Shown piece by piece: positions 1 to 59,356 of a stretch of DNA of 64,000 bases. A program made the position numbers and the translations under genes. Source of the DNA: Candidatus Poribacteria bacterium (GTDB taxonomy: Bacteria > Poribacteria > WGA-4E > GCA-2687025); assembly GCA_028818695.1 (NCBI GenBank), contig JAPPNK010000011.1:72572-136571 (forward strand), written 5' to 3'. The notes beneath the pieces are model-generated. The model ran no database searches. It saw only the letters and a list, made by a program, of their open reading frames with translations, and had not been told where the DNA came from. Positions within the stretch are counted from its first letter, which is position 1; every line of letters starts with the position of its first letter.

Positions 1-645
1 AAGGCGGTTGAGCTGGAAGCGGATGTCGCGCCGCATTTCGGGGGCGGGAATCCGTATGCTGTCGTTTATAACAACCGCGGCGCCGCTAACTCTGAAATAG
101 GCTGTCATGGTCATGACAAGGCGATTGGCGATCTTAACAAGGCAATCGATCTGAGTCCAGACGATGCGGAATCCTACTACAACCGAGGCGCCGCTTACAA
201 TGATCTGGAGCAATACGACAAGGCGATTTCGGACTATAGTAAAGCCATTGATCTGGAACCGGAGCGCGCCATTTACTACATCAACCGAGGACGCGCTTAC
301 AATTTAATAGACAACAACGGCAGAGCGATTGACGATTTTGACAGGGCGGTTGAAATCAACCCCGACAGCAGCGAAGCGTATCTCTCCCGGGCGACGGTTT
401 ACTTAGAGCTGCGCGAATTGGACAGGGCTGTTGAAGATATCAACAAGGCGTTAGCGCTCAACCCACGCGGCCCCGGCGCAAAAACGGTTCATTATTTAGT
501 CCGCGCGGAAGCGCGCTTTAAACAACGCAAGCTTTACAAGGCATTTGCAGACCTGTGGAACGCCTTAGCGAGACTTCCCCTGTCTTTATTTCAGCGGGAG
601 TCTGACGAAGACGCTGTATTGGGAAGCGGTAGCGCGCGGCATTAA
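1..645 (+). CDS. TPR repeat-containing protein (5' partial, continues upstream of window)
   Basis: Frame 1 is open from base 1 to the TAA at 643-645. Repeated 34-aa TPR units carry KAI(D/E)L(E/S)PD...YYNRG motifs. Confidence 0.7.
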   Translation, partial: KAVELEADVAPHFGGGNPYAVVYNNRGAANSEIGCHGHDKAIGDLNKAIDLSPDDAESYYNRGAAYNDLEQYDKAISDYSKAIDLEPERAIYYINRGRAYNLIDNNGRAIDDFDRAVEINPDSSEAYLSRATVYLELRELDRAVEDINKALALNPRGPGAKTVHYLVRAEARFKQRKLYKAFADLWNALARLPLSLFQRESDEDAVLGSGSARH

Positions 646-664
646 GAATGAAAAGACGGAGGCG

Positions 665-1141
665 ATGGCGCATCAAAACGAAGCTGAATTGATTGAGGCG
701 GTGGAAACGGCGGAGGGGCATATCCGCCGCGGGAACAGCTACTACGAGTCTGGGAAGTTTGAGGAAGCGGTCGCCGAATTCAGCAAAGCGATCGAGCTGG
801 AGCCTATTCTCACGCCTCTTTTTACGCGCGACAATCTGTATTTCATCATTTACCTCATTCGCGGCGACGCTTACAAGAAACTCAGCGAGCATGACAAGGC
901 GGTTGCCGACTACGACAAGGCGATTGAGCTGGAGCCTGACGACCCGATAAATTACATCAGCCGATGCTCCGCTTACGTTGCGCTTGGAAAGTTTCGAAAA
1001 GCGGCTGCAGACATGGATAAGGCGATTGATCTGGAGCCTGACGACGCGGTAAACTACATCATACGCGCGATTGTCAACTTTAGACAATTCAAACTCCTCA
1101 AGGCGGTTGCGGACGCGCGGCAATTTTTTAAACGGCGGTAG
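665..1141 (+). CDS. TPR repeat protein
   Basis: 158-aa ORF with several KAIELEPD-type TPR repeats. It is paralogous to the upstream partial gene. Confidence 0.7.
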   Translation: MAHQNEAELIEAVETAEGHIRRGNSYYESGKFEEAVAEFSKAIELEPILTPLFTRDNLYFIIYLIRGDAYKKLSEHDKAVADYDKAIELEPDDPINYISRCSAYVALGKFRKAAADMDKAIDLEPDDAVNYIIRAIVNFRQFKLLKAVADARQFFKRR

Positions 1142-1220
1142 ATACGGCGGGCGCGGACGTTCAAGCAAAAAACGGGCATCCGCCTTCCCGCTCATCCGCT
1201 TCGCGCTCCCCAGGATCTCT

Positions 1221-1435
1221 GACCTCATGCATAAAGTTGGGGCGCCATGACAATAGATCCGCGACGACCAGCGGAAAGCCCCCGATCCGCCCGTCGCCAT
1301 TCCCTCGAAAGCCATATCCCCGTGAAAACGGGGAACGGGTAGGGAATCCAGAGTCCAACAGACGACGTCCGCATTCGCATGTCGACATATCCCAATTAAA
1401 GCCTTAAGGTCGCAGATAAACATTGACGATTCGCC
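1221..1435. repeat. MITE-like intergenic repeat, copy A
   Basis: Left arm GACCTCATGCATAAAGTTGGGG and right arm CCCAATTAAAGCCTTAAGGTC form imperfect terminal inverted repeats. The internal ATTCCC...GGGAAT stem encloses a GNRA-type hairpin. The element aligns end-to-end with the 17005-17185 copy. No coding capacity; the 75-aa ORF on the minus strand is a shadow ORF. Confidence 0.6.
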
Positions 1436-1477
1436 CCGCTGCCTGTATGATAACGCTGTACTGAATCATGCGGAGAT

Positions 1478-2668
1478 ATGCAAATGCGAACGATACGGCG
1501 GCGTATGCAAGCTGCGGCTCTCTTGGCGGCCGCGCTGACCCTGGGGCTGCTCGGATGCGATCAACTTGTCAAAACGCTGGACCCTGAACCTGAGCCAAGC
1601 GCCACGCTCAAAATCGGCTTTATACAACCCAGCGGCTACTTCAACGGCTTTTCTGCCGGAGCCGAACTTGCCCGGCAAGAGCTGAATCGACAAGGCGGCG
1701 TCCTCGGTCGACAGATCGAATTCATCTACCGCGACAACCAAGGCGCCGACATCTTCCCGTCCGGCGAAGCGACTGTTCAGGCGGCGCAGGAGCTGATCGC
1801 CGATGAGGGCGTTTTCGCGCTCCTGGGCGTCATGTTCTCAGCCAACGCCATTGAGCTGGCAGAAATAACTGCGCAGACCGAAACGATACTCGTCACAAAC
1901 GCCACCTCTGCGCCCGTATCGGCTTCAAGCGAGTATGTCTTCCTGGTCGCCCCGACGACCAGCGCGCAGGGGGTTGAGCTCGCAAAATTCGCCGCCTCTG
2001 CGAAGAACCTAGACGCGCAGACGGCCGCCCTTCTTCTTCAAGCGGACGACCTCTACTCAAATATTCTCGCCGATTCGTTCACCGCCAACTTTGAAGCGCT
2101 GGGCGGAACGGTCGCGGCGCGCGCCAGCTACGAAGTCGGAAGCCGCGACTTCTCCGAGCCGATCGGGCGCATCTTAGCCGCGAACCCTGATGTGATCTTG
2201 GCGACCAGCTTCGCGCCGGAGGTTCCGCTCGCTATACAACAGGCGCGCGAAGCGGGGTATGAAGGCGACTTCATCGGCGGCTCCGGCTGGTTTGTCCCCG
2301 ACGATTTCTTGAACACATTGGACGACAACGCCCCGTTGAACGGCTCCTTCTTTACGTCCAACTATTCCGGCGGGGCGCCGTCAGCGGGCGTTCAGCATTT
2401 CGTCCGCCTTTACGAAGCGGTATACGGCGAGCCGCCGTCAGGCAAGGCGCCGAAGGGGTACGATGCGATGACGCTGCTTGCGCAGGCGATAGAGCGGGCA
2501 GGCAGCCTGGACTCGCGCGCTGTGCGGGACGCGCTTGCCGCGGCGACCGACTATGAGGGCGCCACCTCCATTGTCCGTTTCAACGAAGACCGCCAGCCTG
2601 TCAAAGCGATCGTCCTCCAGACGATACAGGACGGCGAAATGCGTTTTTACCAGCTACTGACTCCGTAA
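1478..2668 (+). CDS. ABC-type substrate-binding lipoprotein, LivK/branched-chain amino acid-binding family (PBP type 1), subfamily A
   Basis: Signal peptide plus lipobox LLGC. Conserved LKIG.IQP...GGVLGRQIEFIYRDNQG...LLG..FS.N core typical of Peripla_BP_6. About 65% similar to the copy at 5584. Confidence 0.85.
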   Translation: MQMRTIRRRMQAAALLAAALTLGLLGCDQLVKTLDPEPEPSATLKIGFIQPSGYFNGFSAGAELARQELNRQGGVLGRQIEFIYRDNQGADIFPSGEATVQAAQELIADEGVFALLGVMFSANAIELAEITAQTETILVTNATSAPVSASSEYVFLVAPTTSAQGVELAKFAASAKNLDAQTAALLLQADDLYSNILADSFTANFEALGGTVAARASYEVGSRDFSEPIGRILAANPDVILATSFAPEVPLAIQQAREAGYEGDFIGGSGWFVPDDFLNTLDDNAPLNGSFFTSNYSGGAPSAGVQHFVRLYEAVYGEPPSGKAPKGYDAMTLLAQAIERAGSLDSRAVRDALAAATDYEGATSIVRFNEDRQPVKAIVLQTIQDGEMRFYQLLTP

Positions 2669-2683
2669 ACCGAAGGGTATCCA

Positions 2684-3955
2684 ATGAACGCAAAAAAAAC
2701 CGCAAAAACGGGCGCTATCGCTGCCCTTGCGGCGGCTCTCGGCATTTTCATCGCCGCCGGATGCGACACGCTGCTCGACGCGATTGACCCCGAACCGCCC
2801 AAACCTGTTCAGGGCGAAACGATCAAGATCGGGCTGATTTTTCCTGCCGACCCCTCTTATCCTGCCCGCGCTTTTCTCCAAGGCGCCTGGATCGCTCTCA
2901 ATGAGATCAACGACAGCGGCGGCATTCTTGGCAAGCAGGTTGAACTCATCGTCCGCGACAACCTAGGGACCGACCCATACCCGACCGCCGCCTCCACCAT
3001 TGATACGGCGCGCGACCTGATCATAAACGAAGGCGTGACGGCGATCGTCGGACCCGTCTTTTCAACGAACTCCATCGCTCTCGGCCAGGCGTTGACGCAG
3101 GCGGGCGAAACGACCCCGTTCATCCCGGCGTCCACGTCCCCCATCGTGACGCAGAGTTACACCCATACGGCGCTGGTAAGCGCGAATATTCCGCTCCATT
3201 CGACGATTCTTTCCGACTTTGCGCGCTCGGGGCTAAAAGCGGACACAGCCGCCATCCTTGCGCAGGAGGAGGACGCTTACTCCCAGCTGTTGACATCCAC
3301 CTTTATGGAGTTGTTTGAAGCGGACGGCGGAACCGTCGTTTCTGCCGAAACCTATGCTGTCGAAACGGTCGACTTTTCGGCGAATGTGGAAACGCTGCTC
3401 GCCGGCGGCTCCGACGTCTGTTTCTTAACAAGCTTTCCGCCGGCGGTTCCGCTCATCATCGACCAGGCGCGCGCCGCCGGCTATGAGGGCGTCTTCATCG
3501 GCGCGAACGGATGGGACGTCCAAGCTGCGTTCTACTCCGTCTTGGACGACAACTCGGTTCTGGACGGCTCCTATTTCACGACCGACTTTTCCCCGGACAA
3601 CCCCTTCATAAGTCCTGGGCCGCCGGCTGTGCCGCCGCAGTTTGCTGCCGTATATGAAGCCTCTTATGGCGTCCCCGCCGACAGCCTAGCGGGGAACGGG
3701 TTCGACGCGATGTCGGTTCTCGCGCAGGCGATTCAAACGGCAGGGGCAAACGGGGCGGAACCCACGGACGACGCGATCCTGCAAGCCTTGACAGCGATAC
3801 GCGGATACCGCGGCGCGACCGAAATCTCCCATTTTGACGAGAACAGGCTTGCGGTTAAAGATCTTATCATCATGAGGATTCAGGACGGCGCGTCCGCGAT
3901 TCATGATCTATGGGACAACCCGCTCAAGGGATCCGATCCGCCGGCGTCCGATTAA
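2684..3955 (+). CDS. ABC-type substrate-binding lipoprotein, LivK family, subfamily B
   Basis: Lipobox IAAGC. Near-identical signal peptide and core to the 4076 copy. C-terminal YRGATEISHFDENRLAVKDL motif. Confidence 0.85.
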   Translation: MNAKKTAKTGAIAALAAALGIFIAAGCDTLLDAIDPEPPKPVQGETIKIGLIFPADPSYPARAFLQGAWIALNEINDSGGILGKQVELIVRDNLGTDPYPTAASTIDTARDLIINEGVTAIVGPVFSTNSIALGQALTQAGETTPFIPASTSPIVTQSYTHTALVSANIPLHSTILSDFARSGLKADTAAILAQEEDAYSQLLTSTFMELFEADGGTVVSAETYAVETVDFSANVETLLAGGSDVCFLTSFPPAVPLIIDQARAAGYEGVFIGANGWDVQAAFYSVLDDNSVLDGSYFTTDFSPDNPFISPGPPAVPPQFAAVYEASYGVPADSLAGNGFDAMSVLAQAIQTAGANGAEPTDDAILQALTAIRGYRGATEISHFDENRLAVKDLIIMRIQDGASAIHDLWDNPLKGSDPPASD

Positions 3956-4075
3956 CGAATTGCGTCCCAGCCCATTTTGGGCATAGTAAGAGACGGCGCT
4001 CATGAAATTTGAAAACGGAGGAGCGCTCAGTTTTCAAACTGCTCAATCTAGAACGCCATGTTAGAAAGGCTTCCA

Positions 4076-5317
4076 ATGAACATAAAGACAACCTCAAAAA
4101 TAGGCGTCGCCGCTGCGCTTGCGGCAGCCCTCGGCATTTTCATCGCCGCCGGATGCGACACGCTGATCGACGCGCTTGACTCTGATCCGTCCGAACCTGT
4201 TCAAGGCGAAACGATCAAGATCGGGCTGATTCAGCCTCAAGGCAACTTTCCGAGCTTCGCGCTAGGAGCCAAGCTTGCCCTTGCGCAGATCAACGCCAAC
4301 GGCGGCATTCTTGGCAAGCAGGCAGAGATTATCGAGCGCGACAACCAAGGGCAAGACCCCTACCCGACCGCCGCCTCCACCATCGATTCTGCCCGCGACC
4401 TGATCCTGAACGAAGGCGTGACGGCGATCGTCGGACCCATGTTTTCAACGAATTCCATCGCTCTTGGCCAGGCGTTGACGCAGACGGGCGGAACGACCCC
4501 GTTCCTCCCAGGGTCCACATCCCCCGTCGCGACGCAGAGTTACGCCTATACGGCGCTGGTGAGCGCAAACTTGCCGCTCCACTCCACGATTCTCTCCGAC
4601 TTTGCGCGCTCGGAGCTGATGGCAGAGACAGCGGCCATCCTCGCGCAGGAAGGGGACGCCTATTCCCAGCAGTTGACAGTCTCCTTTAAGGAGCTGTTTG
4701 AAGCGGCCGGCGGAGCCGTCGTCTCTGCCGAAACCTATGTCGTCGGAACGGTCGACTTTTCGGCGAATGTGGAAACGCTGCTTGCCGGCGGCTCCGACGT
4801 CTGTTTCTTGACAAGCTTCCCGCCGGAGGTTCCGCTCATCATTGACCAGGCGCGCGCCGCCGGCTATGAGGGCGTCTTCATCGGTCCAAACGGATGGAAC
4901 GTCCCCGCCGAATTTTACTCCGCCTTGGACGACAACTCGGTTCTGGACGGCTCCTATTTCACCATTGACTTTCTCCCGAACGAAAGCAATCCAGCGGCGC
5001 AGCAGTTCGCAGCCGCATATGAAGCCGTTTACGGCATGCCCGCTGACAGCTTCGCAGGGAACGGGTTCGATGCGATGTCGGTTCTCGCCCAGGCGATTGA
5101 AGCGGCAGGGGCTGTTGGCTCAGAAAACGCCAACGACGCGATCATGAGCGCTATCGCTGCGATACGCGATTACCGCGGCGCGACCTACATCTCCCACTTT
5201 GACGAGAACAGGCTCGCCGTGAAAGACCTTGTCATCATGAGGATTCAGGACGGATCGTCCATGTTCTACTCGGTCTGGGACAATCCAAACAAAGGAGCCG
5301 ATCCCGGCGATGAATAA
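4076..5317 (+). CDS. ABC-type substrate-binding lipoprotein, LivK family, subfamily B (recent duplicate of 2684-3955)
   Basis: The start was moved to the ATG at 4076 (MNIKTT...), matching the CCAATGAAC start context of the previous paralog and an AAAGG Shine-Dalgarno. Very high identity to the 2684 copy across the whole length. Confidence 0.8.
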   Translation: MNIKTTSKIGVAAALAAALGIFIAAGCDTLIDALDSDPSEPVQGETIKIGLIQPQGNFPSFALGAKLALAQINANGGILGKQAEIIERDNQGQDPYPTAASTIDSARDLILNEGVTAIVGPMFSTNSIALGQALTQTGGTTPFLPGSTSPVATQSYAYTALVSANLPLHSTILSDFARSELMAETAAILAQEGDAYSQQLTVSFKELFEAAGGAVVSAETYVVGTVDFSANVETLLAGGSDVCFLTSFPPEVPLIIDQARAAGYEGVFIGPNGWNVPAEFYSALDDNSVLDGSYFTIDFLPNESNPAAQQFAAAYEAVYGMPADSFAGNGFDAMSVLAQAIEAAGAVGSENANDAIMSAIAAIRDYRGATYISHFDENRLAVKDLVIMRIQDGSSMFYSVWDNPNKGADPGDE

Positions 5318-5491
5318 GCGCCGCAACAGAGCCGACAAAGCGGCCGGCGGAACGACCCAAGCAGACGACCGCAATTCAAGAAGAAACGGGGGAGCTCCGC
5401 AGTTCCGTCGTTTCTCCTCTTAAAAGCGGTAAGACCGCAAAGATACAGGCGCAAGGCGATGTTGTCCCAGCTCAACGCCGACATCAAGCGG

Positions 5492-5520
5492 TTGCGGGGG
5501 TCTCAACTTTGCGCTATGAT
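5492..5520 (+). promoter_or_regulatory. Candidate sigma70 promoter for the 5584 SBP gene (TTGCGG-17-TATGAT)
   Basis: -35 TTGCGG at 5492-5497, 17-nt spacer, -10 TATGAT at 5515-5520, about 60 nt upstream of the ATG. Confidence 0.35.
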
Positions 5521-5583
5521 TGAAAGCGGCCGTTCTCTGAAGGAGGCGGATGTCATAACGATTTAAGACAAAGAAAGATAGCC

Positions 5584-6765
5584 ATGTTTGCAAGACAGCG
5601 CGTTCTCAACCTCGTCGCCGCCGCGGCTTTCGCGGCGGTTGCCATGACAGGCTGCGAAAAATTGGTCGATACCCTTGACCCAGACCCCGGCTCCAGCGAA
5701 ACCTTGAAAATAGGCGTCATCCAGCCCCATGGATATTTTGTCAGCTTTGCCCGCGGAGCGGAGCTGGCGCGTATGGAGCTGAACGCCGAAGGCGGCGTTT
5801 TAGGACGCCAGATCGAATTCATCTACCGCGACAACCAGAAAGGCTTGGTGTTTCCAACGCCCGAAAGCACGATTCAAGCGGCTGAAGAGTTGATTATCGG
5901 CGAAAAAGTGTTTGCTCTTTTAGGACCGACATTTTCGAGCAACGCGATTCATCTGGGAGATATTGCTCAACAGAGTCAGACGCCGGTCTTGGTGAACGCC
6001 ACATCCGGAGCCGTGTCGGCTTCAAGCGACTATATTTTTCTCGTCGCCGGCACGACAGGTTCTCAAGGCGAAGGCCTTGCTAAATTTGCGTTGTCGCCCG
6101 ACAATTTGGGCGCAAAGACAGCGGCAGCGCTTTTTCAAGCGGGGGATCTATACTCGGAGGTTCTGGTTGAGGCGTTCGCCGAGAAGTTTGAAGAGCTCGG
6201 CGGGAGCGTCTTGGCGCGCGAAACCTACGAGGTCGGCAGCGAAACATTCGCGGGTTCACTTCAACGGGCATTGGCTGGCAGCCCGGATGTCGTCCTGATG
6301 GCGAGCTTTGCCCCGGAGGTTCCCCTCGCCATAAACGAGGCGCGGGAAGCGGGCTATGAAGGAGTCTTTCTGGGCGGAACCGGCTGGAACGATCCCGACT
6401 CATTTTTCCATGCCTTGGAGGACAACTCGGTCTTGAACGGATCGTTCTTCACATCGAATTTTTCGGCAGAAGCGCCGGGCGAAAGCGTCCAGCGTTTTGT
6501 CGCAGGATATAAAGCCGCATACGGCACAACGCCGCCAGGTCAATCCTCAAAAGGCTACGACGCCATGAAGCTGCTGGCGCAGGCGATTGAAACGGCGGGC
6601 AAGCTGGACGCCCCCGCCGTTCGAGACGCCCTCGCCGCGACGAGCAATTATGAAGGCGCTACGGCGATTGTACGCTATAATGAGCATCGGCAGCCTCTGA
6701 AAGAGATTGTTATTATGACAATTCAAAACGGAGAATCAACATTTTACCAGCTGCTTGCGCCCTAA
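5584..6765 (+). CDS. ABC-type substrate-binding lipoprotein, LivK family, subfamily A
   Basis: Lipobox AMTGC. Co-linear with the 1478 copy, including the shared C-terminal FYQLL(T/A)P. Confidence 0.85.
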   Translation: MFARQRVLNLVAAAAFAAVAMTGCEKLVDTLDPDPGSSETLKIGVIQPHGYFVSFARGAELARMELNAEGGVLGRQIEFIYRDNQKGLVFPTPESTIQAAEELIIGEKVFALLGPTFSSNAIHLGDIAQQSQTPVLVNATSGAVSASSDYIFLVAGTTGSQGEGLAKFALSPDNLGAKTAAALFQAGDLYSEVLVEAFAEKFEELGGSVLARETYEVGSETFAGSLQRALAGSPDVVLMASFAPEVPLAINEAREAGYEGVFLGGTGWNDPDSFFHALEDNSVLNGSFFTSNFSAEAPGESVQRFVAGYKAAYGTTPPGQSSKGYDAMKLLAQAIETAGKLDAPAVRDALAATSNYEGATAIVRYNEHRQPLKEIVIMTIQNGESTFYQLLAP

Positions 6766-6796
6766 ACCAAAGCGCAAAACACCGAAAGGAACGCGC

Positions 6797-8104
6797 ATGA
6801 AAGCGAAAATGCGAACGCTCATTGCAATCTTCTCATCCCTCTTCCTCGCCGCGGCATTGACAAGCTGCGACGACCTTCGATCCATCCTTGACCCTGACAT
6901 GGAGACGCCGACAGCTCCCACTTTGAAAATTGGCATCATCCAGCCTTCTCAGTACTACATCGGCTTCCTCCATGCAGCCGAACTGGCGCGCCAAGAAATC
7001 AACGCCGGAGGCGGCGTCCTCGGCAGACAAATTGAGTTCGTCATGCGCGACAACCAAGGATCGGACATTTTCCCCACGCCCGAAAAAACCATTGAAGCGG
7101 CGCATGACCTGATCGCCAATGAAGGCGTCGCGGCGATTCTAGGACCCATTTTCTCCACCAACTCCATCGCAATGGGCAACGCCCTGACTGAAGCGGGCTT
7201 AGCCGTGCCGCTGCTTCCGGGGTCCACATCCCCGGTCGTCACGCAAACGCATTCGCATTTCGTACTCGCCGCGTCGAACAACCATCTCCATGCGACTGTT
7301 CTTGCCCAGTTCGCGGCGATGGAGCTGGGCGCTGAGACCGTCGGCGTCTCCCTGCAGGCGGGCGACGTCTACTCGGAAGTTGTGACGCGCGCGTTTGTGG
7401 ACGACTTTCGCAGCGTCGGCGGCAATGTGAGCTCCATCGCTAGCTATGAGGTGGGAACGCGCGACTTATCAGCGCAGATTCAGGTGCTAATGGACGACAA
7501 TCCAGACGCCATTTTCCTCCCCAGCTTCGCGCCTGAAGCTCCTCTGTTCATTCAACAGGCGCGCGCGGCGGGCTACGAAGGCGTCTTCATCGGAGCCGAC
7601 GGATGGGACGACGCATTGCAGTTCTACTCCACGCTGGACGACAACGCCCCGCTCAACGGCTCCTACTACACAACCAACTACTTCCCCGGCGGAGACGATC
7701 CGACCGCAAATGCGTTTGGAGACGCTTTCATGAGCGCTTACGGCGTCATCGCCGATGGCATCGCCGCCAACGGATACGACTCCCTGATGCTGCTCGCCAA
7801 AGCGATTGAAGCCGCCGGAGGAGGCGAAACACACGACGGCATGGACGACGGAATGTACGGCGACGATTCGATGATGTCCATGGAGATGCCCCACGCCGAC
7901 GCCGTTCTCGATGCGCTGGTTTCGATTGAAGGCTACCGCGGCGCGACCGCCATCTCCCATTTCGATGAAAATCGAATGGCAGTGAAAGACCTTATCATCT
8001 TGAAGATTCAAGACGGCATGCCCACGTTCCATTCCATATGGACGAATATGCAGGGCGGCGAAGGAAATGGCGGCGGATACGACGACGGCAATCCCAACGA
8101 GTAA
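6797..8104 (+). CDS. ABC-type substrate-binding lipoprotein, LivK family, subfamily C, with Met/Asp-rich insert
   Basis: Start chosen at the ATG at 6797 (MKAKMRTL), which has an AAAGGAA Shine-Dalgarno; the ATG at 6755 would overlap the previous gene. Lipobox LTSC. Has a C-terminal extension and the insert GMDDGMYGDDSMMSMEMPH. Confidence 0.8.
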   Translation: MKAKMRTLIAIFSSLFLAAALTSCDDLRSILDPDMETPTAPTLKIGIIQPSQYYIGFLHAAELARQEINAGGGVLGRQIEFVMRDNQGSDIFPTPEKTIEAAHDLIANEGVAAILGPIFSTNSIAMGNALTEAGLAVPLLPGSTSPVVTQTHSHFVLAASNNHLHATVLAQFAAMELGAETVGVSLQAGDVYSEVVTRAFVDDFRSVGGNVSSIASYEVGTRDLSAQIQVLMDDNPDAIFLPSFAPEAPLFIQQARAAGYEGVFIGADGWDDALQFYSTLDDNAPLNGSYYTTNYFPGGDDPTANAFGDAFMSAYGVIADGIAANGYDSLMLLAKAIEAAGGGETHDGMDDGMYGDDSMMSMEMPHADAVLDALVSIEGYRGATAISHFDENRMAVKDLIILKIQDGMPTFHSIWTNMQGGEGNGGGYDDGNPNE

Positions 8105-8132
8105 ATCGACGGGGTTCATCTGAAACATTCCA

Positions 8133-8175
8133 AGAGGCGGGGCGGCTGCCTAGCTGCTCCGCCTCTTTTTCTTTT
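8133..8175 (+). terminator. Rho-independent terminator candidate after SBP5
   Basis: Stem AGAGGCGG...CCGCCTCT followed by the run TTTTTCTTTT, 30 nt downstream of the stop at 8104. Confidence 0.5.
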
Positions 8176-8355
8176 AAATCAATCCCGCTAAATTTTCCGC
8201 TCCTATCGGTTATTGATACAGCCTAGTTGAGAATGCGTTCGCCGGCGAACAGCGCTATCATGCCGCTTGGCAACGCGGGTTGTCGACTTACATTCAAAAC
8301 CATATTGACAGAGGCTGTACGACACAACGCCGATCAACCTAAGAGGAAAACGCGC

Positions 8356-9609
8356 ATGAGAGCAACGACTAAACGCGGCGCCGTAATAAAACGGCGGGCA
8401 TTCGCCGCAACGTTGGCGTCCATCTTTCTTGCCGCGGCGCTGATAAGCTGCGACGACATCCGAGATATACTTGAACCGGACGCCCCGGAACAGACCCCCA
8501 CTCTGAAGATCGGCGTCATTCAACCGCCGCAATTCTACATCGGCTTCATTCGCGGCGCCGAGATGGCGCGCCAGGAGGTGAACGCGGAAGGCGGCGTCCT
8601 CGGCATGCAGGTCGAGTTCATCGCGCGCGACAACCAGGGGGCAGACATCGTCCCGACAGCCGAAAAAACGATCCAAGCTGCGCATGAGCTGATCGAAACC
8701 GAAGGCGTCGTTGCGATACTCGGACCCATCTTTTCGACAAACTCAGTTGCGCTCGGAAGGGCGCTGACCGAAGCGGGCATCGACATCCCGATACTGCCGG
8801 GGTCCTCCTCCGCCTCGGTGCCGCATTCATACTCCCATTTTGCGCTGGCAAATTCAAACAACCTTTACCAAGCAAACGTTCTGGCAAACTTCGCCTTTAC
8901 GGAGCTGGGCATCCGTTCGGTCGCTCTCTCGCTTCAGGCGGGCGACGAATATTCGCGCGTCTTGACGGAAGGTTTCGTGCGCGATTTTGAAGCGGTCGGC
9001 GGAGAGATTGCGTCTGTCGCCACCTACGAGGTCGGCGCAACCGACTTCGAGCCGCAAATCAAGGTTCTCATGGCAAGCGAACCCGAAGCGGTCTTTCTGT
9101 CTAGCTTTGCGCCAGAGGTTCCGCTCTTTGTTAAGCAGGCGCGCGCGATGGGCTACGACGGGCAATTCCTCGGCGGAGACGGCTGGGACGACATAGCAAG
9201 CTTCCACAGCGTTCTTGAGGACAATTCCCCGCTGAACGGCTCCTATTACATCGCCAACTTCTTCCCTGGCGGCAACGATCCGACAGCAAACGCCTTTGCT
9301 GACGCATTCATGAGCGCCCACGGCATCATGGCTGACAGCGGAGCTGCGGCAGGTTACGATTCCATGAAGCTGCTCGCCCAAGCCATCGAAACCGCGGCAG
9401 CCGATATGGTCGGGGAGAACGGCGAGACCGCCCTGCCGGATGCGGACGCCATTCTTGCGGCTCTGCTCGCGACGGAAGATTACCGCGGCGCAACCGCGAT
9501 TTCGCATTTCGATGAAAGCCGCCTCGCCGTCAAGGAGCATGTCATCCTAAAAATAGAAAACGGGATGCCGGCGTTCCATATCGCATGGCCCGATTCAAGG
9601 ATCGATTGA
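8356..9609 (+). CDS. ABC-type substrate-binding lipoprotein, LivK family, subfamily C
   Basis: Start moved to the ATG at 8356 (MRATTKRG...), which is preceded by AAGAGGAAAA. The 8227-8355 extension in the six-frame track has no Shine-Dalgarno and encodes an unlikely leader. Lipobox LISC. Confidence 0.8.
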   Translation: MRATTKRGAVIKRRAFAATLASIFLAAALISCDDIRDILEPDAPEQTPTLKIGVIQPPQFYIGFIRGAEMARQEVNAEGGVLGMQVEFIARDNQGADIVPTAEKTIQAAHELIETEGVVAILGPIFSTNSVALGRALTEAGIDIPILPGSSSASVPHSYSHFALANSNNLYQANVLANFAFTELGIRSVALSLQAGDEYSRVLTEGFVRDFEAVGGEIASVATYEVGATDFEPQIKVLMASEPEAVFLSSFAPEVPLFVKQARAMGYDGQFLGGDGWDDIASFHSVLEDNSPLNGSYYIANFFPGGNDPTANAFADAFMSAHGIMADSGAAAGYDSMKLLAQAIETAAADMVGENGETALPDADAILAALLATEDYRGATAISHFDESRLAVKEHVILKIENGMPAFHIAWPDSRID

Positions 9610-9722
9610 AGGCGCCGCCGGCAACAGAGACGAGGCGGCATGGAAAGCGGAGACAGCGACCGAACGGATAACGGCGAAACGCGGCATGAGAAAATGCGCG
9701 GCGGAGACGCGGCCGTTTCGCC

Positions 9723-9751
9723 TTGCGCGCGCCTGCAACTTGCTCTACAAT
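9723..9751 (+). promoter_or_regulatory. Candidate sigma70 promoter for SBP7 (TTGCGC-17-TACAAT)
   Basis: -35 TTGCGC at 9723-9728, 17-nt spacer, -10 TACAAT at 9746-9751. Gives a roughly 85-nt leader containing a small uORF. Confidence 0.4.
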
Positions 9752-9781
9752 ACGAAGGCTGGTATTTTCATTGAAGATCGT

Positions 9782-9847
9782 ATGGAAAACAGGCAACAGC
9801 AAACGGTTCAAACGATCCAGTGTGAAAACAAGAAAGAAAACGCATGA
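9782..9847 (+). other. 21-codon upstream ORF (MENRQQQTVQTIQCENKKENA) whose TGA overlaps the ATG of SBP7 (ATGA)
   Basis: In-frame ATG...TGA read directly. The stop overlaps the 9844 start codon. Lies downstream of the candidate promoter. Possible leader peptide or translational coupling. Confidence 0.25.
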
Positions 9848-11121
9848 ACGCAACAACTGACCGCAAATTCAAATCGCTGCGACGAATAATCACAGCAACG
9901 CTCACATCTCTGTTTCTAGCCGCAGCTTTTACAAGCTGCGACGATCTGAGGTCGATCCTGGACCCGCAGGAGCCGGCGCCGGTCTCGACGCTCAAGATCG
10001 GCGTCATTCAGCCTCCTCAATTTTACAGCAGTTTCGCGCGCGGGGCGGAGATCGCGCGGATGGAGATCAACGCAGCCGGCGGCGTTCTTGGGATGCCGGT
10101 CGAGTTTGTCATCCGCGACAACCAAGGGACAGATATTTTCCCAACGCCGGAAAGTACGATCTATGCGGCGCATGATCTGGTCGAAAACGAGAACGTTGTT
10201 GCGATTCTCGGTCCCATCTTTTCAACCAACTCGGTGGCGCTCGGCGCAAAATTGACCGAAGCGGGCATTGACATTCCGATTTTGCCGGGGGCTACCTCCG
10301 CTTCGGTGCCGCATTCGTACTCCCATTTTGTGCTGGCGGGCGCAAATAACCTGCATCAAGCAAACGTTCTGGCGAATTTCGCCTTGACGGAGCTAGGCAC
10401 CCGTTCCGTCGGCATCGCGCTGATGGCGGGCGACGAATACACGCGCGTCACGACAGAAGGTTTCATCAGCGATTTTGAAGCGGGCGGCGGAGAAATTGTG
10501 TCTGTCGCCACCTATGAGGTCGGCACAACCGACTTCGGACCGCAAATCAAAGTTCTCATGGCGGGCGATCCCGAAGCGATCTTCCTCCCCAGTTTCCCTC
10601 CTGAGGTTCCGAATTTTATTGAGCAGGCGATCGCGATGGGTTACACCGGTCAGTTCCTCGGCGCCGACGGGTGGGACGACGTCGCTGGATTCTACAGCGT
10701 CCTGGACGACAATACGCTGATGGACGGATCCTACTACATCGCCAACTTCTTCCCTGGCAGCGGCGATCCAGTAGCAAACGCCTTTGCCGACGCGTTCATG
10801 GCCGCCTACAACGTGCTGTCCGACAGCTCTGGAGCGGCAGGTTACGACAGCATGAGGCTTCTCGCCCATGCCATCGAAATGGCTGCGGGCGAGATGGGCG
10901 GAATGGACGGCGAAACAATGACGCCGGATGCGGACGCCATTCTTGCGGCTCTGCTGGATGTGCAAAATTACCAAGGCGCAACCATGATTTCCCACTTCGA
11001 TGAGAACCGCCTCGCCGTCAAAGACTACAACATCCTGACAATTCAGGACGGCATGCCGGCGTTCTATAAAGCATGGGATTCAAGCGGCGGCATGGGAGAC
11101 GGCGCAGACCAGGGCGAATAG
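9844..11121 (+). CDS. ABC-type substrate-binding lipoprotein, LivK family, subfamily C
   Basis: Lipobox FTSC. Co-linear with the 6797 and 8356 copies. Confidence 0.85.
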   Translation: MNATTDRKFKSLRRIITATLTSLFLAAAFTSCDDLRSILDPQEPAPVSTLKIGVIQPPQFYSSFARGAEIARMEINAAGGVLGMPVEFVIRDNQGTDIFPTPESTIYAAHDLVENENVVAILGPIFSTNSVALGAKLTEAGIDIPILPGATSASVPHSYSHFVLAGANNLHQANVLANFALTELGTRSVGIALMAGDEYTRVTTEGFISDFEAGGGEIVSVATYEVGTTDFGPQIKVLMAGDPEAIFLPSFPPEVPNFIEQAIAMGYTGQFLGADGWDDVAGFYSVLDDNTLMDGSYYIANFFPGSGDPVANAFADAFMAAYNVLSDSSGAAGYDSMRLLAHAIEMAAGEMGGMDGETMTPDADAILAALLDVQNYQGATMISHFDENRLAVKDYNILTIQDGMPAFYKAWDSSGGMGDGADQGE

Positions 11122-11200
11122 CCTCGCCGTATGTCTCGCGCAGCATAAACAGGTCGGTCGGCTAAATCTATCTATTTCGCCGACCGCTTTCACCGCCTCA

Positions 11201-11905
11201 TCAACGCCGCAGACGAAATCGCCCCGCTTCATAGATGGGAAGGACGGGCGCGGCGTCTATTTGCGCGGCATAGTCAATGTCGCGTTCATAACCGAAGCGC
11301 AGCAGCGTCTGGGCATGCTCTGCCTCGCGGAGAGCGGCGCGCAGATCGCCCCGTCGACTCAACCATAGCGCTTCAGCCGTCCGCGCCGCGTCCGTCAGGC
11401 GGTCAAAGGCGCCCTTGATCCGATGAACGCACGCCCCGGCAAAGAGCGCGTCGTCCAACGAGAGCCGCCCATGCGTCCCTGCGCATGCGAGCAGCGCGTT
11501 CCCGCAGTCCGCCTCAAGCGCCCGGCACACGGCAGAGATGTTGATGAAGGCGCCCGCAAACAAGCGCCTCGCTCCTTCGGCGGCGCGGATGAGGCGCGTC
11601 CCGTTCGTCGTGGTGAAGCAGATCGTCCTGCCTTCAACAACGGCGCGCGTGTATTCCAGCGGCGAGTTGCCAAGATCGAACCCGTCCAGTTTGACGTTGC
11701 CGCGTTCTCCGCCCAAGAGCGTCTCTCCACAGTCGCCGCGCATTTCTACAGCCTCTTCGGGCGACAGCGCCGGCGCGACCGCCTCCGCTCCGTTTGCCAG
11801 AGCCGCCGCGATGGTTGAGGTCGCGCGAAGGATGTCGATCGCGGCGACAGCGCCGTCGGCGTCCAAATCGACTCGCGTTGCGTCTAAATACAGCAGAACG
11901 TCCAA
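11201..11905 (-). CDS. comB: 2-phosphosulfolactate phosphatase (ComB) family protein
   Basis: The C-terminal roughly 235 aa of the 555-aa minus ORF carry the ComB hallmarks: IDILRATSTI, LLGGERGNVKLDGFDLGNSP and TTTNGTRLI. A TTG start near 11905 or 11914 sits behind GGAAAGGGAG. The N-terminal remainder is a spurious extension that overlaps a plus-strand gene. Confidence 0.65.
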   Translation of the reverse strand: MDVLLYLDATRVDLDADGAVAAIDILRATSTIAAALANGAEAVAPALSPEEAVEMRGDCGETLLGGERGNVKLDGFDLGNSPLEYTRAVVEGRTICFTTTNGTRLIRAAEGARRLFAGAFINISAVCRALEADCGNALLACAGTHGRLSLDDALFAGACVHRIKGAFDRLTDAARTAEALWLSRRGDLRAALREAEHAQTLLRFGYERDIDYAAQIDAAPVLPIYEAGRFRLRR

Positions 11906-12025
11906 TGTTCTCAAAGGCTCCCTTTCCGTGCATCCTGCATAAAAGTATAGCCTGACCGCGCCGTCCCGTTCAGTTGACGCGCGGCGCTGCCCAATATATG
12001 CTAACGTCGTTGAAAGGAGCGGCAG

Positions 12026-13297
12026 TTGAGCGGCGGTCGAACGATGCGCATCGGTCTCGTCGGCGTCGGTATGTTCGGGGGCGATGTCCATCTGCGCACA
12101 TACGCCGACCTTGTTCGCAACGGCATTGCGCCGTATCTGGGACGGCTGGCGATGGATGAGCATGCGCGCTCCTTCGCCGGCATTCGTTTTGAGCTGCGCG
12201 CCGTCGCCGCAAGATCCGAAGAAAGCGCCCAGCGCGCCGCAGACACTTTCCACGCCTGGACAGGAAATCGACCCGACTCCTTTTTTGGGGATACGCCTTG
12301 GGAGACGATGCTGGACGCCTTCCCCGATCTCGACATACTCGCCGTCGCGACGCCCGACCATCTCCATGCGCCGCCCGCTCTCCACGCGCTCAACAGGGGC
12401 GTCCATGTCATACTTGAAAAGCCGATGACGCTCCGCATGAGCGAGGCGGATGAAATACTGAACGCCGCCCGATCCAACGGCCGCATCGTTGGGATGGACA
12501 TGCACAAGCGTTACGACCCCGACCATCTGCGCATCTTCAGCGCCTTGACGGAGCAGATTGGGCAGCCGCTTTTTGGGCGCGCTGTTCTTGAAGAGCCGCT
12601 GGAGGTTTCCACAAAAACCTTCAAATGGGCGGCGCAAAGCGATCCGTTCAGCTATGTCGGCGTCCACTGGACAGACCTGTTCATCCATTACTGGCGCGTC
12701 AAGCCGAGGTCGGTCTTCGCGGTCGGGCAGAAGGTGAAACTGATTGGCGAATACAACATTGACGCCTACGACGCCGTCCAGGTGAGCGTCCTTTTCGACA
12801 ACGGCGCGCATGTGCAGTTCAACAACCACTGGATTCTCCCTCCCGACTTTGAGGGACCCGTCAACCAAGAAAGCGAAATTTTAGGCTCCCGCGGCAAGAT
12901 CGAATCGGATAGTCAATACCGCGGCCTGCGCTATTTCATTGAAGGCGAAGGAACGCGCACCGCCAATACTCACATGACGCGGCAGATACAACGCGCAGAC
13001 GGCTCCGAGACGACCGTCGGATACGGAAAAGACAGCCTCATCGCATGCGCCGCCGCTGTCGCCCGCCATCGATTCAACGGCGAGACGATCCGCTCTTTAA
13101 AAGGAACCTACTCCGACGGCGAAGACGGTCGACTCTCCGTCGCTGTCGTCGAAGCGGCGCGGGAAACGCGCGACCTGAATTTCCGCCACTTCAAAGACGG
13201 ACGGGGAACGCCCGCGACCGCGCTTCTGAACGAAGAAGGCATTTTGATATACGACCCGATCGGCGGAAACCGCCGCGTCTACGGCGGGAAGATATGA
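12026..13297 (+). CDS. Gfo/Idh/MocA family NAD(P)-dependent oxidoreductase
   Basis: N-terminal Rossmann motif RIGLVGVGMFGG, plus ILAVATPDHLHAP and EKPM motifs. TTG start at 12026 behind AAAGGAG; an alternative ATG lies at 12044. Confidence 0.8.
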   Translation: MSGGRTMRIGLVGVGMFGGDVHLRTYADLVRNGIAPYLGRLAMDEHARSFAGIRFELRAVAARSEESAQRAADTFHAWTGNRPDSFFGDTPWETMLDAFPDLDILAVATPDHLHAPPALHALNRGVHVILEKPMTLRMSEADEILNAARSNGRIVGMDMHKRYDPDHLRIFSALTEQIGQPLFGRAVLEEPLEVSTKTFKWAAQSDPFSYVGVHWTDLFIHYWRVKPRSVFAVGQKVKLIGEYNIDAYDAVQVSVLFDNGAHVQFNNHWILPPDFEGPVNQESEILGSRGKIESDSQYRGLRYFIEGEGTRTANTHMTRQIQRADGSETTVGYGKDSLIACAAAVARHRFNGETIRSLKGTYSDGEDGRLSVAVVEAARETRDLNFRHFKDGRGTPATALLNEEGILIYDPIGGNRRVYGGKI

Positions 13298-21102: not shown

Positions 21103-21179
21103 TGGTGGGCGGTAGTGGACTTGAACCACTGACCTCCTGCATGTCAAGCAGACGCTCTAGCCAGCTGAGCTAACCGCCC
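21103..21179 (-). tRNA. tRNA-Val (anticodon GAC)
   Basis: Hand-folded cloverleaf GGGCGGT..GCTCAGCTGG..TCTGCTTGACATGCAGA..GGTTCAAGTCC..ACCGCCCA with encoded CCA. Anticodon loop TTGACAT. Confidence 0.8.
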
Positions 21180-21184
21180 AAATA

Positions 21185-21259
21185 TGGAGGCGACGGTCGG
21201 ACTCGAACCGACGAATAGGAGATTTGCAGTCTCCCGCCTTACCGCTTGGCTACGTCGCC
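21185..21259 (-). tRNA. tRNA-Cys (anticodon GCA)
   Basis: GGCGACGTAGCCAAGCGGTAAGGCGGGAGACTGCAAATCTCC...GGTTCGAGTCCGACCGTCGCCTCCA, anticodon loop CTGCAAA. Confidence 0.8.
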
Positions 21260-21278
21260 GTGAACCGGCAAAGAAAGT

Positions 21279-21353
21279 TGGGGCGGGCGACGCGATTTGA
21301 ACGCGCGACTTCAACCTTGGCAAGGTTGTGCTCTACCCCTGAGCTACGCCCGC
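21279..21353 (-). tRNA. tRNA-Gly (anticodon GCC)
   Basis: GCGGGCGTAGCTCAGGGGTAGAGCACAACCTTGCCAAGGTTG...GTTCAAATCGCGTCGCCCGCCCCA, anticodon loop TTGCCAA. Confidence 0.8.
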
Positions 21354-22118: not shown

Positions 22119-23552
22119 TTAGACAAGTATCTCGTTCACGACCCGCCCATGAACGTCGGTCAACCTGAAATCGCGTCCTTGGAAGCGGTACACCAGCTTT
22201 TCATGGTTGATCCCGAACAGATGCAGCATCGTCGCATGAAAATCATGCACATGTACAACGTCCTTCACCGCGTTGTATCCGAGCTCGTCCGTTCCGCCGT
22301 AGGAAACGCCCCCTTGAACGCCTCCGCCCGCCATCCACATGGAGAAACCCTTGATGTGGTGGTCGCGCCCAGAGCCTTGCGCCATCGGCGTCCGTCCAAA
22401 TTCGCCGCCCCAGACAACCAACGTGTCCTCCAGCATCCCGCGCTGCTTCAGATCGTTCACCAACGCCGCAGACGCTTTGTCGACCAGCTTCGCCGAAGTC
22501 AAGATGCCCTGCTTGATGCCCCCATGATGGTCCCATCCGCGGTGGTAAAGCTGAATAAACCGCACCCCCCGCTCCGCCAGACGACGCGCAAACAGGCAAT
22601 TGGACGCAAACGACCCGTCCCCAGGCTTCGCCCCGTACATGTCCAGTACATGCTGCGGCTCATCCGACATGTCCATCAGCTCCGGGACGCTTGTCTGCAT
22701 GCGAAACGCCATCTCATACTGCTGAATGCGCGCCGCGATAGACGGATCGTCCACCGCGTCCCCAAGCATGGAGTTCAACCGCTGCGACGCCTCGACGATG
22801 TCGCCCTGGCGCTCAATTCCGACGCCGTTCGGACTGTTCACATAATGCACAGGGTCGCCCGTCGAGTTCAGTTGAACGCCCTGGAACTGCCCCGGCAAAA
22901 AGCCGCTGTGCCACTGGCGCGTCGCGATCGGCTGATCCTGCCCTCCGCCCGCCGAGATCAACACAACAAAGCCTGGCAGATTCTCCGACTCGCTGCCCAG
23001 CCCGTAGAGCAGCCACGAACCCATGCTCGGACGCCCCGCGATCACTGAGCCGGTGTTCATGAACGTATGCGCGGGGTCATGGTTGATCTGCTCCGTCACC
23101 ATTGAGCGCACGATGCAGATGTCGTCGGCGATCTGCGCGATATGCGGGAAGGCGTCGCTAATCTGCTGCCCGGACTCGCCATGCCGCTGGAAGCCATGCT
23201 GCGGCGCCAAGCAGGTCAAAGCCCGCCCTTGAAGCTGCGCAATCGGCTGCCCCTTCGTGAACGACTCCGGCATGGGCTGCCCGTTCATTTCGCCCAGCTT
23301 CGGCTTGTAGTCGTATGTCTCAAGGTGGGACGGGCCGCCCGCCATGCAGAGATGAATGATTCGTTTCGCCTTCGGAGCCACATGCGGCTCTGTGACGACG
23401 CCGCGCCAGCGCTCCGCCGTTGGCGCCCCCTGCGCCGCCGAATCGGGCAGAAGAAGCGAGCCGAGCGCCAGCGAACCCATCCCGGTCAAGGTGCGCCCCA
23501 AAAATGTCCTGCGCGTCAAAGAATCTCGAAGCCGCTTGTCCAGTTTCTGCAT
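22119..23552 (-). CDS. DUF1501 family protein (sulfatase-like, TAT signal)
   Basis: Twin-arginine motif RRTFLGRTL at the N-terminus. Canonical partner of a DUF1549/DUF1553 protein in Planctomycetes/Verrucomicrobia. Confidence 0.8.
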   Translation of the reverse strand: MQKLDKRLRDSLTRRTFLGRTLTGMGSLALGSLLLPDSAAQGAPTAERWRGVVTEPHVAPKAKRIIHLCMAGGPSHLETYDYKPKLGEMNGQPMPESFTKGQPIAQLQGRALTCLAPQHGFQRHGESGQQISDAFPHIAQIADDICIVRSMVTEQINHDPAHTFMNTGSVIAGRPSMGSWLLYGLGSESENLPGFVVLISAGGGQDQPIATRQWHSGFLPGQFQGVQLNSTGDPVHYVNSPNGVGIERQGDIVEASQRLNSMLGDAVDDPSIAARIQQYEMAFRMQTSVPELMDMSDEPQHVLDMYGAKPGDGSFASNCLFARRLAERGVRFIQLYHRGWDHHGGIKQGILTSAKLVDKASAALVNDLKQRGMLEDTLVVWGGEFGRTPMAQGSGRDHHIKGFSMWMAGGGVQGGVSYGGTDELGYNAVKDVVHVHDFHATMLHLFGINHEKLVYRFQGRDFRLTDVHGRVVNEILV

Positions 23553-23553
23553 C

Positions 23554-32318: not shown

Positions 32319-32325
32319 GAAGCGT

Positions 32326-43308: not shown

Positions 43309-43325
43309 AAGGAAAGGGAGCGTTC

Positions 43326-43997: not shown

Positions 43998-44045
43998 GAT
44001 CTGAAACGGATGGAACGAAATCGGCGAACAAAGAAAGGAACGAGC

Positions 44046-48511: not shown

Positions 48512-48540
48512 GGGCCGAGTCTGTTATTCAGACTCGGCCC
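48512..48540. terminator. Bidirectional hairpin terminator between convergent paralog 3 and metH
   Basis: Perfect 12-bp stem GGGCCGAGTCTG / CAGACTCGGCCC with a 5-nt loop. A T-rich tail (GTTTTATT) follows on the minus-strand reading. Confidence 0.55.
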
Positions 48541-51979: not shown

Positions 51980-51996
51980 CGGTTCGCTTTCAGCGT

Positions 51997-59347: not shown

Positions 59348-59356
59348 GGAAACCGC

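Follow-up and report, generated by a model that had tools for sequence, protein, structure and literature searches.

A tandem array of seven LivK-type binding lipoproteins without a local translocator in Candidatus Poribacteria

What do seven substrate-binding proteins serve when no transporter is encoded beside them? This question is raised by a 64,000-nucleotide (nt) stretch of DNA from Candidatus Poribacteria (contig JAPPNK010000011.1, hereafter the window), in which seven consecutive same-strand open reading frames (ORFs; 1478-11121, + strand) each encode a Peripla_BP_6 (LivK-type) lipoprotein, in the subfamily order A-B-B-A-C-C-C. The reading that we favour, with a probability of roughly 0.6, is that the seven lipid-anchored proteins, P1 to P7, bind different small carboxylates and feed one distal LivHMGF translocator. 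These tandem-expanded HAAT-family (LivJ/LivK-type) lipoproteins would each be exported and then lipid-anchored, and each would close on a small ligand with a carboxylate group, bound in the cleft that separates its two lobes. The loaded proteins would all dock on one LivHMGF-type ATP-binding cassette (ABC) translocator encoded elsewhere in the genome, and therefore one pump would import several substrates.

Members, fold and anchoring of the array

An initial annotation, made from the sequence of the window, had described seven same-strand LivK-family lipoprotein paralogs over 9.6 kb, and the ORFs, family matches and lipoboxes bear this out. All seven proteins match nearly the whole PF13458 (Peripla_BP_6) domain, with E-values of 1e-39 to 2e-59 and bit scores of 137-202 against a gathering cutoff of 31.7; the ANF_receptor and Peripla_BP_5 models give weaker, overlapping matches. 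The NCBIfam models for LivJ/LivK and UrtA give at best 73 bits against curated cutoffs of 477-495, namely 38-73 bits against 477 for NF011933/PRK15404 (LivJ/LivK) and at most 62 bits against about 493 for TIGR03407/TIGR03669 (UrtA). Since these scores are far under the cutoffs, the array proteins are not orthologs of LivJ/LivK or of any named member. The genes, called from ORFs and their translations, have 393-435 codons each and are arranged as follows.

1478..2668, + strand: P1, subfamily A1 binding lipoprotein, 396 amino acids (ORF, PF13458, lipobox, structural model); pocket residues Ser121/Thr143/Tyr193/Phe245/Ser269/Lys323 by alignment to LivJ
1478-1558, + strand: P1 signal peptide, lipobox LLGC, Asp at +2
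2684..3955, + strand: P2, subfamily B binding lipoprotein, 423 amino acids; lipobox AAGC-D; Asn275 at the LivJ Glu226 column
4076..5317, + strand: P3, subfamily B binding lipoprotein, 413 amino acids; ATG at 4076, possible upstream ATG at 4058; lipobox AAGC; Asn272
5584..6765, + strand: P4, subfamily A2 binding lipoprotein, 393 amino acids; lipobox MTGC-E; Thr266, Gln320
6797..8104, + strand: P5, subfamily C1 binding lipoprotein, 435 amino acids; lipobox LTSC; Asp268; insertion at 7832-7909
8356..9609, + strand: P6, subfamily C4 binding lipoprotein, 417 amino acids; lipobox LISC-D; Asp275
9844..11121, + strand: P7, subfamily C3 binding lipoprotein, 425 amino acids; lipobox FTSC-D; Asp275

The order A-B-B-A-C-C-C, already proposed in the initial annotation, is reproduced by the pairwise protein identities, which reach 61% for P1/P4, 76% for P2/P3 and 60-70% among P5, P6 and P7, and fall to 39-49% between subfamilies. 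On the other hand, the B pair had been called near-identical and ascribed to a recent duplication or gene conversion. It is not near-identical: besides the 76% protein identity, P2 and P3 are about 81% identical in DNA, their synonymous divergence (dS) is 0.40, and no identical stretch exceeds 41 nt. These values rule out near-identity or a long gene-conversion tract, and at a dS of 0.40 a recent origin of the pair is unsupported. Identity of the two genes varies from 53% to 96% along their length. The C-terminal extensions attributed to subfamily C do exist, but they are short, add little and are also present in B; what makes C longer is chiefly an acidic insertion of 15-26 residues inside the protein. 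The P5 insertion comprises 26 residues, is Met/Asp-rich (HDGMDDGMYGDDSMMSMEMPHADAVL) and recalls Met-rich metal-binding loops; those of P6 and P7 are located at 9403-9447 and 10891-10935, respectively.

P1 is the paralog whose structure was modelled. The AlphaFold2 model built from a 73-sequence alignment has a mean predicted local distance difference test score (pLDDT) of 91.8 and a predicted template modelling score (pTM) of 0.85, and it replaced a version from a 7-sequence alignment (pLDDT 68). In a Foldseek search of the PDB with this model, all of the top 50 matches are HAAT or other type I binding proteins, which indicates a type I fold, with two alpha/beta lobes and a hinge between them. 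The best match is 3td9, the Thermotoga maritima LivK (TM1135), with an E-value of 3e-31 and a template modelling (TM) score of 0.84, and the best structural matches 3td9, 4gnr, 3hut and 4q6b have target-normalised TM scores of 0.84-0.89. By profile search as well, 3td9 and the Streptococcus pneumoniae LivJ (4gnr) are the closest solved structures, with E-values of 4e-54 and 1e-44 (Foldseek 3e-31 and 4e-29; target-normalised TM 0.84-0.86), though their identity to the array proteins amounts to 25-28%. Since PDB members of the HAAT family bind ligands as different as amino acids, 2-oxo acids, aromatic acids, urea, pyroglutamate and a fatty acid, the ligand is not fixed by family membership alone.

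By pattern match, each of the seven proteins carries a basic n-region, a hydrophobic h-region and a lipobox of the form [LAMF][LATI][GS]C (LLGC, AAGC, AAGC, MTGC, LTSC, LISC and FTSC from P1 to P7), with the Cys at residue 24, 27 or 32. The +2 residue after the lipidated Cys is Asp in six copies and Glu in P4, and an acidic, proline-rich conserved linker comes next. Asp at +2 is the inner-membrane retention signal (Lol avoidance) of E. coli. Because of their Asp/Glu at +2, the seven proteins are probably lipid-anchored on the periplasmic face of the inner membrane, by a rule that is derived from E. coli and may not be that of Poribacteria. The first 18 residues after the Cys (e.g. 1559-1612 in P1) follow the conserved pattern C-[DE]-x-[LI]-x-x-x-[LI]-[DE]-[PS]-[DEQ] and then the Pro/acidic linker. 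Nearly all poribacterial copies have Asp/Glu at +2; the Fusobacterium and Verrucomicrobia relatives have Gly.

Linkage to a translocator

The window was reported to lack a LivHMGF-type permease or ATPase, and this holds: jackhmmer searches of all ORFs with Fusobacterium seeds and Pfam scans of the larger ORFs found no LivH/LivM/LivG/LivF-type gene in the 64 kb. The unrelated nature of the flanking genes was likewise seen in the Pfam scans. The array is bordered by two genes, and beyond ComB lie a GFO/IDH/MocA oxidoreductase and a class-III aminotransferase.

665..1141, + strand: TPR protein, 158 amino acids, upstream boundary; syntenic in the seven-copy sister strain
11201..11950, - strand: ComB (2-phosphosulfolactate phosphatase), downstream boundary, convergent; right array edge in the 5-, 7- and 11-copy relatives

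A livHMGF operon directly outside the window, a possibility that the initial annotation had raised, was not encountered upstream in a sister strain of Candidatus Poribacteria (locus L001), whose 3,656,726-bp contig (ENA ERZ25069412, ctg853967_33x_l) is 97.4% identical at the DNA level to positions 1-12621 of the window and whose P1 homolog is 99% identical, with an annotated start 2 residues later. There, the 10 kb that precede the array encode GyrA, an XylA2-like protein, RimK, a sulfatase, YceI, DUF3179, PhyH, a hypothetical and a TPR protein, with no permease or ATPase gene among them.

We then compared linkage across genomes in a homolog survey that took one genome per species and returned 80 related loci. 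Two LivH/LivM-type (PF02653) permease genes adjoin the binding-protein gene in about 44 of the 61 non-poribacterial loci, and most of these about 44 loci have two ABC ATPase genes too. Fusobacterium homologs of the 3td9/4gnr branch, for instance, lie in operons of a substrate-binding protein gene followed by LivH, LivM, LivG and LivF. Among poribacterial loci, LivH/M was found within 10 kb in none of 20 (18 surveyed, the window and the sister strain). Since none of the 18 other loci is linked, the missing transporter linkage is a trait of the poribacterial clade and not of this locus alone.

Gene counts from related genomes point to where the partner could be. In KEGG counts for 29 Entoporibacteria genomes (Waterworth et al. 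2021, Table S7; PMC8546597), livH is present once in 25 genomes, twice in 2 and not at all in 2; livM counts resemble those of livH, livG and livF mostly occur once per genome, and livK ranges from 2 to 15 with a median of 7. The text of that paper makes no comment on the livK:livHMGF ratio, the counts being placed in its supplementary table (PMC8546597). Three genomes of Table S7 (AGPOR5, PCPOR2a and PNGco_C_binSS2) are also among the surveyed poribacterial loci. About one livHMGF set for 2-15 livK genes, taken together with the absence of local linkage, therefore favours many binding proteins on one distal translocator over transporter-less receptors. The heading of the initial annotation, "no transporter", is thus true for the locus, but for the genome it probably is not, given the counts in other Entoporibacteria.

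The initial annotation had left two readings side by side: an orphan battery of sensory receptors, resembling AmiC or chemoreceptor ligand domains, and a ligand-scavenging set feeding one distal transporter. The unlinked genes and the KEGG counts favour the second. For the first, the proteins would act as transport-independent receptors that signal to a transducer, a kinase or some other partner. The lack of a linked transporter in any poribacterial locus surveyed speaks for such receptors, as do Phe202 and the loss of an acidic residue at position 226 in half the clade (LivJ numbering, see below), a departure from the canonical transport-linked relatives. However, no chemoreceptor, histidine kinase, Ser/Thr kinase or cyclase gene lies beside the array in the window, in the sister strain or in the 5- and 11-copy relatives described below (L082, L083 and L085), nor do the syntenic loci contain an AmiR-like partner nearby, and for unlinked binding proteins the use of a distal translocator is usual. 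A signalling role of Peripla_BP_6 proteins is documented for the pair BasB/BasT (PMC8050422); indeed, BasB of Halobacterium salinarum is, like the array members, a Peripla_BP_6 lipoprotein, one that binds branched-chain amino acids without a transporter (PMC8050422). Its partner, the transducer BasT, is listed in a table of that review, but no such gene occurs near the array. The likeness to AmiC is also limited: the array proteins carry signal peptides and are exported lipoproteins, unlike the cytoplasmic AmiC, and their neighbours are TPR, ComB, oxidoreductase and aminotransferase genes instead of an amiR/amidase operon. Finally, the single LivHMGF set encoded by Entoporibacteria (PMC8546597) needs at least one binding protein. 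We therefore regard a receptor role, which a distal partner could still allow, as unlikely.

The window does contain one importer of another kind. At 34625-38437 (- strand), an Opp/Dpp-type ABC importer is encoded by a fused double ATPase with oligo_HPY and two BPD_transp_1 permeases, next to a DnaJ-like protein, a Band 7 protein and a HAD hydrolase. The Opp/Dpp class pairs with SBP_bac_5 binding proteins, not with Peripla_BP_6. As a partner of the array it was rejected, its permeases belonging to the wrong family (BPD_transp_1). No SBP_bac_5 gene stands beside it; here, in the reverse of the array, it is the translocator that lacks a linked binding protein.

Copy number, selection and pocket residues

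In relatives the syntenic site is recognised by its right boundary (ComB, GFO/IDH/MocA, aminotransferase, MazG, FG-GAP, RecA). At this same site the number of copies is 5 in L082 (ERZ21830300 ctg717555c), whose first array gene is 65% identical to P1, 7 in the window and its sister strain, and 11 in L083/L085 (ENA ERZ23495369 scaffold_14), which represent a relative at 85% identity. Upstream of its array, this last relative additionally carries an inserted BCCT transporter gene (L083 3963-5603). In other species of Poribacteria, one or two copies are present, at sites that are not syntenic. In a neighbour-joining tree, the array members form one clade apart from these poribacterial singletons, and its sub-clades A1, A2, B, C1, C2, C3, C4 and D are common to several species and keep their order along the array: A1-B-B-A2-C1-C4-C3 in the window, A1x3-Bx3-A2-C1-C2-C4-D in the 11-copy array and A2-C1-C2-C3-D in the 5-copy array. 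Sub-clades A1 and B were duplicated independently in different lineages, some of these duplications being recent and within one lineage, and C2 and D are missing from the window lineage and present in the 11-copy relative. Tandem duplication and loss make the array grow and shrink, a lineage-specific expansion.

All seven copies are under purifying selection and maintained as functional. Between the window and the sister strain, the dN/dS ratio (omega) is 0.13-0.40 for the array genes, similar to the 0.14-0.27 of flanking genes, and between the paralogs of the window it is 0.12-0.40, with dS saturated between subfamilies. The initial annotation had allowed for near-identical, pseudogenised copies; the copies have diverged, and omega values of 0.12-0.40 rule out their pseudogenisation. 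These values also bear on the idea of variable surface lipoproteins for sponge recognition or evasion, with ligand binding as a secondary function. All seven proteins are lipoproteins, their number changes fast (5, 7 and 11 among close relatives), and the organism lives in obligate association with sponges and possesses TPR proteins as well. However, selection on the array is as strong as on flanking housekeeping genes, the core of the binding cleft is conserved, Asp/Glu at +2 points to retention in the inner membrane under the E. coli rule, and neither hypervariable regions nor phase-variation repeats were seen. Such a role appears very improbable.

Transcription signals suggest that the copies are not expressed as one block. 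The intergenic gaps from P1 to P7 measure 15, 120, 266, 31, 251 and 234 nt; since P2 starts 15 nt after P1, co-transcription of these two genes is probable. Promoter-consensus matches across the array region number 7, against 3.3 expected. The individual sites are:

1423..1451, + strand: promoter-like site TTGACG-17-TATGAT, 10/12 consensus match, 27 nt upstream of P1
8132..8167, + strand: strong intrinsic-terminator-like hairpin after P5, 16-bp stem with 10 GC pairs and a T-run
8267..8294, + strand: promoter-like site upstream of P6, 9/12, weak

The array is thus likely to be transcribed as several predicted units, P1-P2(-P3), P4-P5, P6 and P7. The five upstream regions (45% mean identity) share no regulatory motif, and scans with Rfam and for tRNA genes gave nothing inside the array.

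To compare the pockets, E. coli LivJ (PDB 1z15) was aligned with 98 homologs, so that positions are given by alignment, and the ligand contacts of LivJ were taken from a published list (PMC6983066). The equivalents of Ser79 and Tyr150 are kept in all seven proteins and that of Thr102 in six, P6 having Ser. The Tyr202 column is occupied by Phe in 7/7 and in 28 of the 34 poribacterial sequences, versus Tyr in 51 of the 64 non-poribacterial ones. A further column is that of Glu226, a residue that contacts the alpha-ammonium group of the ligand in LivJ/LivK. It is Asp or Glu in 62/64 non-poribacterial homologs; in the window, Asp is found in subfamily C alone (P5-P7), Asn in B (P2 and P3) and Ser/Thr in A (P1 and P4). 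The seven proteins do not keep the full LivJ clamp of Ser79, Thr102, Tyr150, Tyr202 and Glu226. When 24 A, B and C paralogs from the 5-, 7- and 11-copy arrays were compared, columns 226, 276 and 100 proved to be fixed within subfamilies and different between them: column 276 is Lys/Arg/Gln in A, Leu/Phe in B and small or aliphatic in C, and column 100 is Asn in A only. F78, S79, S103 and F202 are invariant in this set, and T102 and Y150 nearly so.

These subfamily differences suggest that A, B and C bind different ligands. Since Asp is kept at the position that contacts the alpha-ammonium group, subfamily C would probably bind amino acids, which we propose tentatively; B (Asn) and A (Ser/Thr together with Asn100 and Lys/Gln276) would, with the same reserve, bind other ligands, e.g. 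2-oxo or other organic acids. That column 226 matters has a precedent among solved structures: the Anabaena variabilis HAAT protein has Asn at the column of P2 Asn275, and it was solved as wild type with 3-methyl-2-oxopentanoate (4obb) and as the N280D mutant (4nv3 and 4nqr), in 4nv3 with valine. This protein likewise lacks Tyr at column 202, but its identity to the array proteins is about 20%. In 3hut, the residue at column 226 is Ser and no ligand is named. 3td9 and 4gnr have Asp at column 226, as does subfamily C, but unlike the array they keep Tyr at column 202. It is conceivable, if rather doubtful, that A and B no longer bind amino acids at all and instead capture other carboxylates of the host or its community (2-oxo acids, hydroxy acids, sponge metabolites). 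If so, the locus would be a fast-evolving specificity cassette by which one LivHMGF pump is adapted to the chemistry of the respective sponge host. In a more extreme form of this departure, some copies may act without any transporter.

The single-copy genes of other Poribacteria offer some context. Those of the Ser226 type (L004, L005, L007, L008 and L009) have a conserved neighbourhood, with a divergent luciferase-like monooxygenase gene on one side and, on the other, a HAD hydrolase and a GFO/IDH/MocA oxidoreductase, with up to four tandem GFO/IDH/MocA paralogs, another tandem expansion. Singletons of the Asp226 type are located downstream of a secreted M28+PD40+PDZ peptidase of about 1000 amino acids in 4/10 loci (L011, L015, L016 and L028), and L011, L016 and L028 have a second, more distant Peripla_BP_6 paralog. 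These neighbourhoods agree, weakly, with different ligands for each type of column 226.

Alternatively, the array could be a matter of dosage: copies of essentially one specificity would together supply more binding protein, so that amino acids are scavenged with high affinity inside the sponge. The core of the ligand clamp (S79, T102 and Y150) is conserved across copies, and A1 and B have been duplicated recently within lineages; furthermore, K01999 (LivK-type) ranks second among the bacterial proteins of a sponge metaproteome (PMC6081418). However, mere redundancy accords poorly with paralogs just 39-76% identical, with dS saturated between subfamilies, with sub-clades retained as orthologs across species, with columns 100, 226 and 276 fixed differently in each subfamily, and with separate predicted promoters and a terminator that suggest separate regulation. 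We consider it improbable that dosage explains the array. The sub-clades conserved across species and the pocket columns that differ by subfamily suggest diversification rather than dosage.

Several points weigh against different ligands feeding one distal translocator. First, when all pocket columns are taken together, they discriminate between subfamilies no better than the remaining columns do (Mann-Whitney p = 0.71). Columns 100, 226 and 276 alone discriminate, and the pocket shows no overall enrichment in such changes because its other half is invariant. Second, the Desulfitobacterium hafniense protein 4q6b has Asn at column 226 and was solved with Leu, and Asn is thus compatible with amino acids. 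Because of this structure, residue 226 alone does not fix the ligand, and a rule by which Asn at 226 would mean a keto-acid ligand was rejected. Third, a LivH profile search of a collection of 5.8 billion proteins returned no poribacterial sequence among the best 120 of about 8000 matches, which were mostly from Opitutae. Because this search was uninformative, a shared translocator in the present genome rests on the KEGG counts of other Entoporibacteria. Fourth, the +2 Asp rule for the inner membrane comes from E. coli, a group other than Poribacteria.

Related systems and other genes of the window

Several binding proteins that share one translocator are already known from LivJ/LivK, HisJ/ArgT, BraC/BraC3 and Borrelia OppA1-5. 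The array thus has an architecture of a known kind, here in an unusually fast-changing tandem form, and its value is that of a tractable example and not of a new principle, because that architecture is already described. What is new is that Poribacteria have a lineage-specific tandem array of HAAT lipoproteins whose copy number varies and in which a key pocket residue differs by subfamily; literature searches found no published description of a binding-protein expansion in this group.

The E. coli LivJ/LivK + LivHMGF system (HAAT, TC 3.A.1.4) shares with the array its Pfam family, its fold and the use of several binding proteins of different specificity per permease/ATPase set, and the LivJ/LivK residues Ser79, Thr102 and Tyr150 have conserved equivalents. 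It differs by a Foldseek identity of 18-21%, by the Phe that takes the place of Tyr202 and the replacement of Glu226 in A and B, and by its organization: in E. coli the two binding proteins are soluble in the periplasm and their genes lie in or beside the liv operon, whereas the array comprises seven lipid-anchored proteins in tandem, unlinked from the translocator. In Rhizobium leguminosarum, the work of Hosie and co-workers from 2002, cited in PMC8546597, is said to show that BraC3 functions with a BraDEFG encoded elsewhere. Like the array, BraC3 is a HAAT protein away from its translocator; unlike the array, it is a single scattered gene. Borrelia burgdorferi possesses five lipid-anchored OppA paralogs (OppA1-5), three of them in tandem, that share one OppBCDF and differ in specificity and regulation. 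These are peptide-binding SBP_bac_5 proteins, however, and the tandem oppA genes stand directly beside oppBCDF. A surplus of binding-protein genes over translocators, with most of them orphans, is found in the Bug family of Bordetella and the TTT family of Rhodoplanes, where it is interpreted as a wider substrate range or as signalling (PMC11452294, PMC5994714). The Bug/TTT proteins differ from the array in being TctC proteins of type II fold that serve a secondary TTT transporter, and in having tens to hundreds of scattered genes versus 5-11 in one array.

Poribacteria are uncultivated, widespread sponge symbionts, and their uptake of compounds from the host has been deduced from genomes alone. 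The array is a small, clonable protein set, whose ligands would name metabolites scavenged by these symbionts. Furthermore, the arrays of 5 to 11 copies form a natural series in which to study how numerous binding proteins can be served by a single ABC translocator.

Outside the array, the window holds several further gene groups. Three tRNA genes (Val-GAC, Cys-GCA and Gly-GCC; 21103-21353, - strand) adjoin a threonyl-tRNA synthetase gene. A planctomycete-type pair at 22119-26613 (- strand) encodes a DUF1501 protein and a 1019-amino-acid PSCyt1/PSCyt2/PSD1 (DUF1549/DUF1553) protein. Two tandem sulfatase genes followed by a ThuA-like gene are located at 30771-33867 (+ strand), and the sister strain has a further sulfatase gene upstream of its array (L001 3987-5429). 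At 42742-45659 (+ strand), a sigma factor of the extracytoplasmic function (ECF) type is followed by a 223-amino-acid protein without a family match and a 549-amino-acid protein with a C-terminal ExbD/TolR domain. A full-length cobalamin-dependent MetH of 1151 amino acids adjoins a 611-amino-acid homocysteine S-methyltransferase-MTHFR fusion at 48524-53832 (- strand). Finally, two tandem M50 (RseP-type) peptidase genes occupy 57488-60334 (+ strand), the first with PDZ domains and the second with none.

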